A stretch of 35,607 nt of DNA from a virus: the UHGV virus genome UHGV-0212823; one strand, written 5' to 3'. Below are positions 1,319-5,168 of this stretch, in pieces (the first letter of the stretch is position 1; each line of letters begins with the position of its first letter). The notes beneath the pieces are model-generated. The model searched no databases. It worked only from the letters and a program-made list of their open reading frames with translations, and was not told the origin of the DNA. The translations under genes were made by a program, and so were the position numbers.

Positions 1319-1393
<75 letters not shown>

Positions 1394-1394
1394 A

Positions 1395-1471
1395 TGGTCC
1401 GCCACCGAGGGCTCGAACCTCGCACCGTCAACTTAGAAGGTTGATGCTCTATCCCGATGAGCTAGTGGCGG
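1395..1471 (-). tRNA. tRNA-Arg (anticodon UCU), 77 nt
   Basis: Acceptor CCGCCAC/GTGGCGG, anticodon stem TCAAC/GTTGA with loop CTTCTAA, T-loop TTCGAGC, CCA encoded. Confidence 0.8.
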
Positions 1472-1472
1472 C

Positions 1473-1549
1473 TGGTGGCCCTTGCTGGACTTGAACCAGC
1501 GACCGGGCGATTATGAGTCGCACGCTCTGACCAACTGAGCTAAAGGGCC
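1473..1549 (-). tRNA. tRNA with anticodon CAU (Ile2/lysidine-type or Met), 77 nt
   Basis: GGCCCTT acceptor, anticodon loop CTCATAA, T-loop TTCAAGT, CCA encoded; resembles enterobacterial ileX-type tRNA from memory. Confidence 0.8.
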
Positions 1550-1670
1550 GGGAACGAGATAGTACATAAGCAAAACTAACCATGCAAACTAAACGGTTCC
1601 AGTGGTTGCGGATGATCCTGTCTGATATTGTTAAATCGCCAAAAGTAACCACATCAGACAAGGAGATGTT

Positions 1671-2126
1671 ATGTCCGAGTACCATAGCTTGCTTCACGTC
1701 ATCAGATCACGTGTATGTGAAAACAGAAATATGTCTCACTCCGCTTATTATCAGGGAAGCCTGCAGGACAATCAGATCAGAAACAGAACGGCGCTTATAT
1801 TCACCCTTGAAATGATACTTCACCAGCACAGAATAAAGTATGGAACCATTTTCAATCCGCTCGAGGGAAAAGATGCGCTCTATCATCTAATATTTATCAA
1901 AACACACTGGTTACTATCCGATATCAGAAACCTCACCCTCGAAGATGCCTTGTTCGTCATACAAGAGGATCTGAGAATGGATAATCTTTCCAATGATGCG
2001 CAAGATGCTCTGAAAAACTTTAATCTACCTTCTGTGGCTTTTCAATTTGAGGATTTTCCAGAAGCGGATTGGAACTATAAGGAAAACTCAACATTCCTAC
2101 GAAGCCTGACGTTGAAAGCAGGCTAA
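1671..2126 (+). CDS. hypothetical protein, 151 aa (AT-rich moron on the opposite strand to the late genes)
   Basis: Strong RBS AAGGAG 6 nt upstream of ATG; AT-rich composition; weak hairpin plus T-tract after the stop (about 2146-2175). Confidence 0.5.
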   Translation: MSEYHSLLHVIRSRVCENRNMSHSAYYQGSLQDNQIRNRTALIFTLEMILHQHRIKYGTIFNPLEGKDALYHLIFIKTHWLLSDIRNLTLEDALFVIQEDLRMDNLSNDAQDALKNFNLPSVAFQFEDFPEADWNYKENSTFLRSLTLKAG

Positions 2127-2289
2127 TAGACGCGTTTATTTCCCCAAGTCGCTCTACAAGAGCGGCTTTTTCTTTTACCAGGCGGTTGTAATGGGTGAGG
2201 TGAAGTTTTTGCTGTCCAAGCCAGTCCTCAAGTTGGTCTGACGTCATGCCAGGATTAAAAAAATAAGGTAGCTGCTTTTCGTCTTGCAT
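2020..2289 (-). CDS. hypothetical protein, 89 aa (start trimmed to MQDEKQ...)
   Basis: RBS GGAGGT 6 nt upstream of ATG at 2289, directly after a terminator hairpin; C-terminal ~35 codons overlap the 3' end of the plus-strand ORF. Confidence 0.4.
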   Translation of the reverse strand: MQDEKQLPYFFNPGMTSDQLEDWLGQQKLHLTHYNRLVKEKAALVERLGEINASISLLSTSGFVGMLSFPYSSNPLLENPQIEKPQKVD

Positions 2290-2302
2290 TATTGACCTCC
2301 AG

Positions 2303-2331
2303 AAAAGCAAAAACCCCGCCAGATGGCAGGG
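2303..2331 (-). terminator. rho-independent terminator (second terminator in the late leader)
   Basis: Minus-strand RNA hairpin CCCTGCC-ATCT-GGCGGGG followed by UUUUUGCUUUU. Confidence 0.5.
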
Positions 2332-2367
2332 CTTCGATTATTAAGCTGTGTGTCGAAGTGACACTCA

Positions 2368-3057
2368 TTACGCTGCCAAACTGTGTTGTTCTTCAATCAG
2401 CGGCTGGCGATGGTTGCGATCAAATACACCTTTTAGCGCCTCTTTGCGTTGTTCGAAGTCCCAGCCCATGCCAATAAATACTGTATTGGCCCGCTGTAAC
2501 TCAGTGACGCAATGGATCTGCTCCGCCGTCAGGTAATCACGAATGCTCTCTTTTTTGTCGATGTCGTGGTAAACACGAAATTTTGCCGCCGTCATACCGA
2601 GCGCGATGCGGTTAATCAAATCCGCTTCGTTGCTAAAATGGTAAGGCTTAATCTCCTTACCCAGAGTTTCGCGCTCATGCTTGATGGCATCGCTCATCGG
2701 ACGATACTCCAGACGTGCGGTGTTACGATCCATTTTTTTGCTCGCCAGAGCGCCACGCATGCGGAAGAACTCAGCAACCAGTTTCTTTTTGAACTTACGG
2801 ACAACATCGTTATTACGCATGTAGGTGATAAGCAGAGTGGTTTGCTGTTCGTTCAGTAGCGCCACTCGACGCTTTTGAGGACCACCGTCAGTTTGAATGG
2901 TTCGGATTTCAAATCCGACCCTTCCGAATTCTTCAAGATCAGCCTTGTTACGGTCTACCAGCTTAATAACGGTGTCATGATCACGCCCAACCCCATCAGC
3001 AATAGCGACAGTGCTGGTTACAAGGTCGAGTTTTTTAATTTCAACTAATTGCATGGC
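2368..3057 (-). CDS. Rha-family phage regulatory protein (start trimmed to MQLVEIKK...)
   Basis: N-terminal MQLVEIKKLDLVTSTVAIADGVGRDHDTVIKLVDRN resembles the Rha/pRha domain; RBS TAAGG upstream. Confidence 0.55.
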   Translation of the reverse strand, partial: AMQLVEIKKLDLVTSTVAIADGVGRDHDTVIKLVDRNKADLEEFGRVGFEIRTIQTDGGPQKRRVALLNEQQTTLLITYMRNNDVVRKFKKKLVAEFFRMRGALASKKMDRNTARLEYRPMSDAIKHERETLGKEIKPYHFSNEADLINRIALGMTAAKFRVYHDIDKKESIRDYLTAEQIHCVTELQRANTVFIGMGWDFEQRKEALKGVFDRNHRQPLIEEQHSLAA

Positions 3058-3203
3058 GTTTACCTTACTTTGAGATGAACCTTTGCCGCACAGGAAACCA
3101 GCCCACCGAGGCTCGCCAGCACTAACTGACTTCCTCAAAGGCTCATTTCAAAGGGTGTGGTTCGGTGTGATATGTGCGCGGGCGGTGCGCAGGAAATGCG
3201 GAT

Positions 3204-3229
3204 ACAAAAAAACCCGCTCAGAGGCGGGT
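3204..3229 (-). terminator. tR'-like rho-independent terminator
   Basis: Minus-strand hairpin ACCCGCC-TCTGA-GCGGGU followed by U7; about 40-60 nt downstream of the promoter below. Confidence 0.65.
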
Positions 3230-3273
3230 GATTTGGAGTTAATTTGCTACAGGCGAGATACTCCATAATCAGA

Positions 3274-3303
3274 AGCATACAGGACACTTTTATGCAAAGT
3301 CAA
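3274..3303 (-). promoter_or_regulatory. pR'-like late promoter (sigma70)
   Basis: Minus strand -35 TTGACT (3303-3298) and -10 TATGCT (3279-3274) with 18-bp spacer, immediately downstream of the Q gene. Confidence 0.55.
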
Positions 3304-3344
3304 CACCAACGCGCAAAAAAGAGTCGCTATTTGCTCCGATCGCA

Positions 3345-4160
3345 TCAATAAGTTGTTGCTTTCTCAAATTCTGATGATGCATGACGCTCTCCTTTGTGCA
3401 GCACATCAATCAGCATTTCATAGAATGGCTTCCAGTTACGAGACCATGAGGACTGATGGAGATCCGGCAGACGTTTAAGGATAGCCCGGTGAACGGTCGC
3501 AGATGACACTCTGGAATACCCCTCGCCGCTGCAACGCTCACATGTTTTGAAAACCGGTGCGCCGCAGTCTTTTGTCGCGATGCGGTCCAGTACCTCGCCC
3601 TTTCCGCCACAACGGCAGCGGGCGCTGATTGTTCCCTTGCCTTCGCAACTATCACAGACGGCTGGAACAATCTCTGTAACCTCTGTCCACAACTCCCAGT
3701 CTGACGGACGAACGGCGCGCGAACGGCTGGCCCAGTAAGGCGCTTTACCCCACGGATAAGTTACTTTACGCGTGGTCTGTGTGCGGGATGTTCTCCCGCT
3801 ACCGCTACAACTGTGGCACGTCACGCTGGTGGCCGCCGAACGGGAGTATTCAGCAAAGGCAAATTGCGCCAGCATCAGCATGCACCATCCCAGCTCACCA
3901 CCGGCTGCTTTGCGCACGTTCTTTGGTGCAGTCTCCATCGCATGGCGTGCCAGCGCCTGTACAGCGAGTTGCTCATCGCTTTCGCTGATCCCGGTCTTAC
4001 CGAAGAAAGCAGCCAGGCCGAACCGCGCGCGGCTGCTGGTCGTACCGATGGCTACCATAACATCGGTCCCGGTAATCCGATCGGGAGAAGTATCTTTCAC
4101 GCTGTCGCTGATATGCATCCCCTGAGGGCTAAAATGTTTAAGAACAGACTCAAGCTTCAC
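3345..4160 (-). CDS. late antitermination protein Q (phage 82/Qin-like family)
   Basis: 271 aa from GTG with RBS GAGGAAA (alternative ATG at 4118); four CxxCxGxG zinc-finger motifs; sits directly upstream of the promoter/terminator pair. Confidence 0.6.
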   Translation of the reverse strand: MKLESVLKHFSPQGMHISDSVKDTSPDRITGTDVMVAIGTTSSRARFGLAAFFGKTGISESDEQLAVQALARHAMETAPKNVRKAAGGELGWCMLMLAQFAFAEYSRSAATSVTCHSCSGSGRTSRTQTTRKVTYPWGKAPYWASRSRAVRPSDWELWTEVTEIVPAVCDSCEGKGTISARCRCGGKGEVLDRIATKDCGAPVFKTCERCSGEGYSRVSSATVHRAILKRLPDLHQSSWSRNWKPFYEMLIDVLHKGERHASSEFEKATTY

Positions 4161-4244
4161 AATAATTTCCTCTGGCGACGGGATGTTTTTATTATCTCAT
4201 TTATTGCAACATACATCCATTTTGATGCAATAAATGAAATACAA

Positions 4245-5168
4245 TCAATCACCCTGATGAGAGCCAATCAGGTTCAGATAAACACCATCCTGACGTCTAC
4301 CCATATCTGCAAAGTTCTCACTCTCCAGATACCATTTGAGTACATTCAACGCCTCCTCACGACTGATCGGCCTGATGGTTTCCAGTTGCTTTTCCAGCCA
4401 GTTTTCCCTGTGCCAGATATGCGAACTCTCCCAGGCGTACTCGTTGGGATGCAGCTCCTTGTATGCTGCCACTCGCATCTGAGACAACCAGTCCCAGTAC
4501 TGGTATTCCCTGACGACGTCGCTGAGGGTATAGGGTGCCGGAAGCACGTCTGTATAGATAAACTCTCCGTCTCCCTCCTGCGTGTAATCACAGTAAATCT
4601 CCTGGTAAGGCCCGTACCTGGACTCAATGAGGCACTCAGCCGGAACAGGATCAAAAACAGCCTCATGGCTGCCAAAAGCACCACGAACATTCTCAGCCTT
4701 CTCCCGCTGTGATCTTGCATTACTGATGAAGTGCTGTGGGTTATCGAGCCACATTGTCGAAAATACGGAAGTCCAGCCCGCGCCGTTCTGCTGCAGGTAT
4801 CGCGTATACCGTTCCTGTGCCTCTTTCGGCGTGATTGTCAGTTTTCCCAGCGCAGCTTCCGCTGCGGCAATATGGACAGGCTCGCCGGTTTTGATAACCT
4901 CCAGCACCCACAGGTACGCATCCGTCTGTTTATGTCCTGTGATAACCCGTTGCAGTGGCAAAGGTTTAATTGTCGCCAGTTCCGTGCTGTATTTCGGTTC
5001 AGGGATGGTGAAAAGCTCCTGGTGCTCAGGATTGTCGCGAAATAACCCGGAGCGACGACAGAGGCTTTTCACCGTATTTAGATTGATGCCAGTTTCACGT
5101 GAGATGGATTTATACCCTCTGCCGCTGCGTTTTAGGCTGAGGATTTGCTCTTTAATATCGTTGTTCAT
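4245..5168 (-). CDS. helix-turn-helix domain protein of unknown function, 308 aa
   Basis: N-terminal MNNDIKEQILSLKRSGRGYKSISRETGINLNTVKSLC looks like an HTH; alternative upstream start at 5228 overlapping the ssb 3' end. Confidence 0.5.
   Translation of the reverse strand: MNNDIKEQILSLKRSGRGYKSISRETGINLNTVKSLCRRSGLFRDNPEHQELFTIPEPKYSTELATIKPLPLQRVITGHKQTDAYLWVLEVIKTGEPVHIAAAEAALGKLTITPKEAQERYTRYLQQNGAGWTSVFSTMWLDNPQHFISNARSQREKAENVRGAFGSHEAVFDPVPAECLIESRYGPYQEIYCDYTQEGDGEFIYTDVLPAPYTLSDVVREYQYWDWLSQMRVAAYKELHPNEYAWESSHIWHRENWLEKQLETIRPISREEALNVLKWYLESENFADMGRRQDGVYLNLIGSHQGD

Follow-up and report, generated by a model that had tools for sequence, protein, structure and literature searches.

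Positions 1,671 to 2,289 of the UHGV virus genome UHGV-0212823 (35,607 nucleotides, called the window here) hold two open reading frames (ORFs) on opposite strands, which converge and overlap at their 3' ends. Are both ORFs genes or is one of them an antisense artefact of the other, and if both are genes, what keeps them together? The first-pass annotation of this DNA, made from the sequence alone, had described a 151-aa plus-strand ORF and an 89-aa minus-strand ORF with an overlap of about 107 bp, and it had left open whether both are real. The coordinates bear out this geometry (Table 1), and throughout the text the plus-strand ORF is called gene A and the minus-strand ORF gene B. We find that A and B are both real genes and that together they form a conserved two-gene prophage module on opposite strands, which is present in many temperate phages of enteric bacteria.

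Both reading frames are protein-coding genes

Homology and structure searches and a comparison of frame conservation among relatives had been suggested as checks in the first-pass annotation. In the profile searches both proteins fall into families. Gene A matches the NCBIfam model NF033230 of the ECs1072 family with 174.9 bits (cut-off 70, E 9.2e-52), with residues 2-144 aligned to positions 1-142 of the 142 in the profile, and it also matches phrog_5286 (E 5e-32). Gene B matches phrog_3501 (E 4.5e-41), with residues 1-82 on positions 1-82 of 85. For A we found 32 homologs with 57-92% identity and 89 when a profile was used as the query, and for B 55 homologs were found. To the phage-borne ECs1072 members A is only 33-42% identical.

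The six-frame test was run on 42-45 unique related sequences, and stop codons as well as the ratio of nonsynonymous to synonymous differences per site (pN/pS) were recorded for each frame. For both A and B only the annotated frame lacks stops, and the other frames are full of them. Residues 6-37 of B, which lie outside the coding sequence (CDS) of A and outside the terminator hairpin described below, contain stops in 0 of 42 sequences and have a pN/pS of 0.25. Residues 31-116 of A contain stops in 0 of 45 sequences and have a pN/pS of 0.38, where pS is saturated (about 0.8). Among pairs that are not saturated, the median ratio of nonsynonymous to synonymous substitution rates (dN/dS) outside the overlap is 0.08 for A and 0.22 for B. 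There are 21 invariant columns in B, mostly at residues 9-48, and the strongly conserved part of the protein, residues 6-48, holds most of these positions. The invariant residues of A include R39, L46, L50, A69, L70, H72, W80, I85 and W134. Both genes are therefore real and each is under purifying selection outside the overlap, which answers the question left by the first-pass annotation and contradicts the alternative that only one frame is conserved.

We reject the explanation that one of the ORFs is an antisense artefact and leave it a very small probability. It could draw on the fact that clear purifying selection inside the overlap is seen only in the A frame (see below), and on several records in which just one of the genes is annotated, e.g. 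those of ST64B and of a Klebsiella phage. Outside the overlap, however, each ORF is the sole open frame in all relatives with low pN/pS, each has a separate PHROG family, B has its 21 invariant residues and A a confident fold, and the Prokaryotic Genome Annotation Pipeline (PGAP) annotates both the A-type and the partner genes in E. coli. A chance origin of the overlap is not supported either: there are many homologs, and the overlap recurs in every related locus examined, far more than chance would give.

The ST64B, Klebsiella and other phage records omit gene A or misplace the start of gene B. The ECs1072-family gene is without annotation in the ST64B record NC_004313 (locus L004, 3001-3435) and also in Klebsiella phage ST846-OXA48phi9.2 (locus L006, 3001-3447). 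The annotated starts of Sb50 in ST64B and of the 110-aa CDS in the Klebsiella phage lie well upstream of the conserved MQ..QQPYFFNPG start.

The two genes are linked across phages

Loci were anchored on A in GTDB species representatives, IMG/VR and phage records, and 89 of them have an intact A, including the window (63 distinct sequences). In all 89 loci a convergent B homolog overlaps the 3' end of A by 71-113 bp. In the other direction, 77 of the 79 evaluable IMG/VR loci anchored on B have an intact A, and the remaining two have fragments of A. The only lineage found with B and without A comprises E. coli phage SKA5, Salmonella phage 118970_sal3 and 101 E. coli genomes; here Q and its terminator are followed by B as the next gene. 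Since the 3' end of A survives as a remnant on the other strand of these B-only loci (2738-2938 of locus L002, E 4.5e-12), A has been lost secondarily in this lineage.

Disrupted copies of A were also seen. In IMGVR_UViG_2871639894_000005 (loci L045 and L109) A is in two parts about 1.15 kb apart, apparently owing to an insertion, and in L060 it carries an internal stop; B is intact in both cases.

The pair is found in three genomic contexts. The first one is the slot behind the antiterminator gene Q, which is occupied on unrelated backbones, with a Q of Pfam family PF03589 in the window and a Q of PF06323 in E. coli. The same slot holds the pair behind the Q-like gene Sb49 in ST64B, behind Q in the Klebsiella phage and in Proteus. 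In the second context, that of SfIV and of the original ECs1072-type E. coli prophages, the pair adjoins an S24 (cI-like) repressor gene, and the SfIV-type pair is present at a coverage of at least 80% in 408 of 5,426 complete E. coli genomes. The third context is that of P2-like prophages, where an A-like gene lies on the strand opposite to the cox early operon and overlaps with an ORF of 81-110 aa on the operon strand. The A genes of these last two contexts are more distant relatives of A. The linkage holds down to the remotest A homologs that a profile search recovered, with E values of about 1e-5 to 1e-8.

In the Q-slot and P2-like contexts the small gene is on the strand of the lytic operon and near the operon start, with A antisense to the operon. 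The YdfC gene of Qin is likewise on the lytic-operon strand near the operon start. The partners in every context, either B or a B-like ORF, share a P-x-hydrophobic...W[LM] motif, which is followed by a long helix. This N-terminal motif reads QLPYFFNPGMTSDQLEDWL in B of the window, QPYIFNPGMSMTELQTWL in the E. coli Q-slot partner, EPKIVAPGYTNEEIYEWM in the SfIV partner, EPRLFRGDYTDKQLIDWL and TPFIYRGSLNDVELRGWL in the first and second P2-like partner and KPYIYAGNLDSNGLIEWL in the locus L015 from a metagenome-assembled genome. B is the conserved and obligatory partner of A on the strand of lytic transcription, and not independent cargo.

A convergent pair of the same layout is found in the e14 element of E. 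coli K-12 (L097, 4498-5085). It consists of ymfI on the plus and ymfJ on the minus strand with a 63-bp overlap and lies beside the ymfK repressor gene, in the cI-adjacent slot that the SfIV-type pair uses. We considered ymfI and ymfJ as relatives of A and B and rejected this, because they have no sequence similarity to A or B. They may be a second, unrelated module of the same architecture.

The overlap is dual-coding and dominated by gene A

Within the 107 bp shared by A and B, the wobble positions of A face the second codon positions of B and the wobble positions of B face the second positions of A. The synonymous rate falls inside the overlap in both frames, from a pS of 0.71 to 0.42 in A and from 0.60 to 0.36 in B, as is expected from dual coding. 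The pN/pS inside the overlap is 0.45 in the A frame and about 1.0 in the B frame. In the AlphaFold2 models, the C-terminal helix of A (residues 136-150) is confident and lies within the overlap, and the tail of B in the overlap is of low confidence or disordered. Because of this difference in pN/pS and in the predicted structures, the constraint on the shared bases is dominated by A. The overlap itself is ancient and conserved.

Gene A has a promoter-like motif and a terminator made from codons of gene B

A TGnTAnnnT motif is kept about 40-50 nt upstream of the start of A in most aligned loci, although the surrounding sequence differs, e.g. TGATAAAAT in Klebsiella and TGATATTGT in the window. 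A threshold-based consensus promoter scan made no call at this -10-like motif. Judged by its conservation and position, it is a putative extended -10 promoter of A. Downstream of it, a conserved leader and an AAGGAG-like Shine-Dalgarno sequence are aligned in most loci. The leader (1632-1660 on the plus strand, GTTAAATCGCCAAAAGTAAC...CAGACAAGGAG) is conserved across divergent loci and holds the imperfect inverted repeat GTTnATT...AATnAAC, which could be an operator or a structured 5' untranslated region.

At the other end of the gene, a hairpin with a T-run is located 3-44 nt past the stop of A in 38 of 42 distinct A-downstream sequences. It sits a further 20-50 nt into B, beyond the CDS overlap, and is made from the B codons for KEKAALxERL (KEKAALVERL in the window). 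Over 32 distinct variants, 86.9% of the cells are paired, compared to 35-62% with slid partners. There are 12 cells with double, compensatory changes, which is reached by 0 of 500 shuffles.

The hairpin is directed to the A strand. In the 32 variants the plus strand has 37 G·U pairs, the minus strand 14. The mean folding free energy (dG) is -12.6 kcal/mol on the plus and -9.7 kcal/mol on the minus strand, with the plus-strand version being more stable in 26 of the 32 variants, and the T-run is found on the plus strand only, so the minus-strand version of the hairpin is without it. The codon choice in B is skewed too: the codon for Ala42 is GCC in 29 of 32 variants, and Arg47 is encoded by CGG in 24 of 27, a codon that makes up 11% of the Arg codons in these genes. 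Synonymous recoding of B with the amino acids kept fixed gives a mean of -3.7 kcal/mol compared to the observed -12.6 kcal/mol, and the real hairpin is in the top 5% of recodings for 27 of 28 variants, which are related by descent and so do not count as independent trials. In the B-only lineage, a single lineage, an Ala-to-Glu change (KEKAELEERL) breaks the stem. Because of the pairing and covariation, the strand asymmetry, the codon skew and the recoding energies, we conclude that the terminator is a selected RNA structure on the A strand and not a by-product of the B protein sequence.

These observations support the view of A as a moron-like gene, and with it the proposal of the first-pass annotation that the Q-to-lysis slot carries a moron here. 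A is AT-rich, as had been claimed, with a GC content of 0.39-0.42 over positions 1651-2100 and about 0.47-0.55 in the flanks. It has a promoter-like motif and, as in morons, a factor-independent terminator of its own, and apart from the 3' remnant it is absent from related phages: in SKA5 and 118970_sal3, B and the lysis genes are still present.

Could the pair be a frozen accident, in which B is an ordinary lytic gene and A an unrelated moron that was extended into the dispensable tail of B, with no functional interplay and with co-inheritance solely because the overlap cannot be undone? B is intact without A in the viable phages SKA5 and 118970_sal3 and in the 101 E. coli genomes, its overlapping tail is weakly constrained (pN/pS about 1) and disordered in the AlphaFold2 model, and YdfC-family genes exist without an A homolog. 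On the other hand, the pair is intact in three genomic contexts and behind unrelated Q families, which means that it moves as a unit, the linkage reaches the most distant A homologs, and the terminator of A is actively maintained inside codons of B. We therefore consider such an accident unlikely.

An ortholog of gene A is expressed in lysogens

The first-pass annotation had suggested that the plus-strand gene is expressed in the lysogen, and published data on ST64B support this. Owen et al. (2020) singled out the gene STMMW_20121 of prophage ST64B in S. Typhimurium D23580, which according to their RNA-seq data has a promoter of its own that is used in nearly every lysogenic condition and for which the transcription start site was mapped (PMC7067206). 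According to Table S5 of that study, STMMW_20121 is located at 2090066-2090500 of D23580, STMMW_20131 at 2090430-2090789 and STMMW_20141 at 2090820-2091443 (PMC7067206). In the ST64B locus L004 these correspond to A (3001-3435), sb50 (3365-3724) and sb49 (3755-4378). The coordinates match the ST64B locus exactly in lengths, gaps and the 71-nt overlap. As they reproduce the geometry of this locus, STMMW_20121 is identified as the ST64B ortholog of A, with 38% identity.

In 16 of 17 conditions this ortholog reached 61-269 transcripts per million (TPM); the exception was late stationary phase with 4.9 TPM (PMC7067206). In the same data the ST64B holin gene had 0.3-33 TPM and the Q-like gene 1.5-7 TPM (PMC7067206).

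Protein structure and homology searches

The AlphaFold2 model of A is a soluble, all-alpha protein of seven helices with a predicted local distance difference test (pLDDT) score of 89.4 and a predicted template modelling score (pTM) of 0.86. Foldseek returned no significant match for A in the PDB (best E 1.6) or in BFVD (best E 0.79). The HEPN toxin fold was examined as a candidate for A and rejected, with Foldseek E values of about 2 and a template modelling (TM) score of about 0.25. A is thus predicted as a confident all-alpha model without fold relatives in these two databases. An exhaustive hidden Markov model (HMM) search of A against 1.84 billion representatives yielded 110 clusters only. 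Nearly all full-length hits are about 145-155 aa long and have no added domain that would hint at a function; three A-family hits of 173-197 aa (P0178, P0195 and P0224) apparently carry N-terminal extensions.

In the model of B, residues 17-61 form a single long helix ahead of a disordered tail, a shape that would fit a small protein that forms oligomers or binds a partner. Its N-terminal motif, QxPYFFNPGMTxxQLEDWL, is YdfC-like. The SfIV-type partner, here called B', shares 39% identity with phage ORFs of the YdfC family, which in turn are almost the same as K-12 YdfC from the dicBF operon of Qin. With hhalign, the B profile matches the YdfC/B' profile with a probability of 72.8% over 32 N-terminal residues only, and the single SfIV B' sequence with 33.5%. 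The homology of B to YdfC is hence suggestive but not conclusive.

In Pfam there is no match for A or B, for B even at E <= 10. PADLOC-DB v2 gave no defence-family match for A or B at E <= 0.1, and in NCBIfam A matches the ECs1072 model only and B gives nothing above noise. Neither the profile nor the structure searches showed similarity of A or B to Stx or to a known toxin or defence protein.

YdfC-family genes were also seen without an ECs1072 partner, in L105 (2501-3016, Escherichia phage vB_EcoS-689R5) and L107 (1501-2360). Other small ORFs lie on the opposite strand there, either immediately behind ydfC or at a distance of a few hundred bp from it on the downstream side.

A possible switch between lysogeny and lysis

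We propose that A and B form a lysogeny/lysis toggle, in which A is expressed in the lysogen and B heads a lytic transcript that runs antisense through A, and we put the probability of this reading at roughly 0.55. In the lysogen, A would be made from its own promoter with a transcript ending inside B, and the A protein would have an accessory role such as superinfection exclusion, defence or modulation of the host or the prophage. Since B opens the late operon immediately downstream of a terminator, it would be made only when Q-modified polymerase reads through. Because the two genes share their last 107 bp and the terminator of A sits in B codons, transcription of B is necessarily antisense to A; lytic transcription would run through all of A, and the A mRNA would be complementary to the 3' half of the B mRNA over at least 107 nt. 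Upon induction, convergent transcription together with antisense pairing could then silence A. That A is inherited with a B-type protein in several contexts suggests that B may also act on or with A, in analogy to a prophage defence gene with its cognate self-immunity, such as BstA/aba, and as an early lytic product the B protein would partner or neutralise A and so provide self-immunity.

Several observations weigh against the toggle. A can exist without B: L083 has an intact A and a B with an internal stop, the start codon of B is unclear next to intact A in L029 and L093, and L193, a distant relative of A, has no partner ORF. In the cI-adjacent context the strand of B' is that of the repressor, and the gene could be read either from PL or from the repressor operon. 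The evidence for lysogenic expression comes from the 38%-identical ST64B ortholog and not from the window sequence. Moreover, the sb50/STMMW_20131 region has 23-258 TPM in lysogens, with a peak under nitric-oxide shock when the lytic genes rise (PMC7067206), and B may therefore not be strictly silent in lysogeny. The sb50 annotation begins 102 nt before the conserved start of B and extends over the 3' end of A; because of this span the signal is not assignable to the B mRNA, and leader RNA from PR' could equally account for it, as could the A transcript with its 3' end. Literature searches on ECs1072, STMMW_20121 and YdfC found no functional study for either family.

The same geometry would suit a toxin-antitoxin (TA) or abortive-infection-style addiction module, with A as a growth inhibitor and the B protein, the antisense mRNA overlap or both as its antidote. 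The convergent 3' overlap of the transcripts, with a 107-bp CDS overlap and the terminator inside B, is that of the convergent 3'-overlapping type I systems, and the location in accessory slots of prophages agrees with it. The loss is asymmetric: B-only loci with remnants of A are common, A is disrupted next to an intact B in L045 and L060, and an intact A without a partner is rare. However, type I systems combine a small hydrophobic toxin with a non-coding RNA antitoxin; A is a soluble helical protein of 151 aa and not a small membrane peptide, and B is a conserved 89-aa protein. The A ortholog is present at about 100 TPM in healthy ST64B lysogens, where B is presumably mostly terminated upstream, and L083 keeps A with a broken B. 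There is no match to a TA or defence profile, and the HEPN matches are non-significant. An addiction module is in our view improbable, slightly more so than the frozen accident.

The toggle can also be put in a more specific form, as an ancient dual-coding toggle in which A is a lysogen effector of a new fold, interlocked with a B of the YdfC superfamily, and B or the lytic transcript switches A off or immunises the phage. We hold this form to be possible but rather doubtful.

Locus layout and gene context

The A/B pair of the window lies in a lambdoid prophage region, between Q and a Rha-family gene on one side and the tRNA and lysis genes on the other (Table 1). The late genes from Q to lysozyme are all on the minus strand, and A is on the plus strand between the tRNAs and B. 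The gene calls agree in this with the Q/tRNA/lysis context given in the first-pass annotation, and the strong ribosome-binding sites of both ORFs and the terminator ahead of the minus-strand ORF were found where it had placed them.

Table 1. Positions of genes and signals of the A/B locus in the window
Feature	Position	Strand	Description and source
Gene A	1671..2126	+	151 aa, ATG start, ECs1072 family (NF033230; phrog_5286), all-alpha, cytoplasmic
Gene B	2020..2289	-	89 aa, ATG at 2289, stop 2020-2022, small helical protein, phrog_3501
A/B 3' overlap, dual-coding	2020..2126	both	107 bp; ORF coordinates
Shine-Dalgarno AGGAG of gene A	1661..1665	+	5 nt upstream of ATG; read from sequence
Shine-Dalgarno GGAGG of gene B	2296..2300	-	6 nt upstream of ATG; read from sequence
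Putative extended -10 of gene A	1623..1631	+	TG 1623-1624, hexamer TATTGT 1626-1631; no good -35
Intrinsic terminator of gene A	2146..2178	+	10-bp hairpin 2146-2168 and T tract; terminator scan
Intrinsic terminator directly upstream of B	2310..2335	-	late-transcription strand; terminator scan
Antiterminator Q	3345..4160	-	Pfam PF03589, E 9.5e-52
PR'-like promoter downstream of Q	3303-3274	-	promoter scan
Terminator after PR'-like promoter	3229-3212	-	terminator scan
Rha-family regulatory protein gene, between Q and B	2368..3054	-	Pfam PF09669, E 2e-15
tRNA-Met(CAT), tRNA-Arg(TCT), tRNA-Gly(TCC)	1319..1549	-	between gene A and lysis genes
Terminator between tRNAs and holin	1111-1086	-	
Holin	975-661	-	
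Lysozyme	658-119	-	

The Shine-Dalgarno sequence of B is kept in SKA5 and 118970_sal3, and the terminator upstream of B has its 3' half and T tract in common with the post-Q terminator of these two phages. The nearest protein relatives are from Citrobacter, with 98% identity of B to a C. freundii protein and 92% identity of A to a C. braakii protein. From these relatives, the host of the phage is probably Citrobacter.

The path of late transcription to B crosses two terminators in a row, one after the PR'-like promoter and one after the Rha-family gene. In the Rfam scan of the window only the tRNAs were above the threshold; the post-Rha terminator has a sub-threshold match to the Salmonella prophage small RNA isrJ (22 bits, gathering score 37). 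In its C-terminal part the Rha-family protein has a match to PDC-S22, a candidate defence model of PADLOC (residues 86-212, E 2.8e-16). SKA5 and ST64B have no Rha-family gene at the position between Q and B. Where the window has its three tRNA genes most related loci show terminators only, and the tRNA cluster is therefore a separate insertion into the same accessory slot.

Relevance of the module

Prophage accessory genes expressed in lysogeny are a main source of new defence, exclusion and virulence functions. The A/B module is carried by prophages of Citrobacter, Salmonella, Klebsiella, Escherichia/Shigella, Serratia, Proteus and Photorhabdus, and both of its proteins are annotated as hypothetical, with one of the two often unannotated. 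The families were already known as hypothetical proteins, and the ST64B member had been flagged as a lysogenically expressed candidate accessory gene. As far as the searchable literature goes, it appears that neither the obligatory convergent pairing with a YdfC-like gene nor the conservation in three contexts nor the embedded terminator had been described.

Through its strict linkage, its ancient antisense overlap and a terminator that is selected within a coding sequence, the locus shows clearly, in a natural system, how dual coding and RNA structure can constrain the very same bases. With its transcriptomic support, ST64B in Salmonella would be a ready experimental model for the simple switch between lysogenic and lytic expression that the geometry suggests. 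If the toggle in its specific, dual-coding form is true, it would provide the first function for the YdfC-like and ECs1072 families, which occur in the 408 of 5,426 complete E. coli genomes mentioned above.

Comparison with known systems

The closest known relative of A is the ECs1072 family (NF033230; PHROG 5286; STMMW_20121, SfIV gp36), of which A is a full-length, phage-associated member. The ST64B member shares the slot and the partner with A and is transcribed from its own promoter in lysogens (PMC7067206). The family differs in being described as a 'hypothetical equivalog' without known function, and the one paper found on the ST64B member does not mention the convergent partner or the embedded terminator (PMC7067206).

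B is a clear member of PHROG 3501, as is Sb50 of ST64B, and is compared here to YdfC of the Qin dicBF operon. B and YdfC are alike in size, in the N-terminal xPxhhxPGYTxxELxxWM motif followed by a long helix and in the early position in the lytic operon, but in Qin there is no A partner. For YdfC no function is known (PMC5069750).

The geometry of the pair can be compared to systems with antisense 3' ends. Convergent 3'-overlapping transcripts, such as lambda oop RNA/cII, txpA/RatA and bsrG/SR4, have a geometry that is known to trigger RNase III cleavage or transcriptional interference. As in oop/cII and the type I TA systems, the transcripts of A and B converge and have mutually antisense 3' ends. 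Unlike in these systems, A and B each code for a conserved protein, of 151 and 89 aa respectively.

BstA, a defence protein, is matched by a cognate element for self-immunity, aba, which is a DNA sequence. In prophage BTP1 it is an accessory gene expressed in the lysogen (PMC7067206). The comparison with A/B is a functional analogy only, as there is no similarity in sequence or structure, and the proposed immunity element of A/B would be a protein, B, whereas that of BstA is DNA.

With respect to position, A compares best with the morons of lambdoid phages. The bor gene of lambda is a moron antisense to the late operon and expressed in the lysogen, and stx lies in the slot between Q and S. A resembles these morons as a probably autonomous unit, with a putative promoter and a terminator of its own, which is of low GC content, lies in the Q-to-lysis slot antisense to the late genes and is missing in sibling phages. 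It differs from them in that it is predicted to be a cytoplasmic protein without fold relatives in the PDB or BFVD, and not a lipoprotein or toxin, and in that it is interlocked with a gene on the lytic strand with which it travels. A/B is a moron-type accessory unit that is interlocked with a lytic-strand partner.

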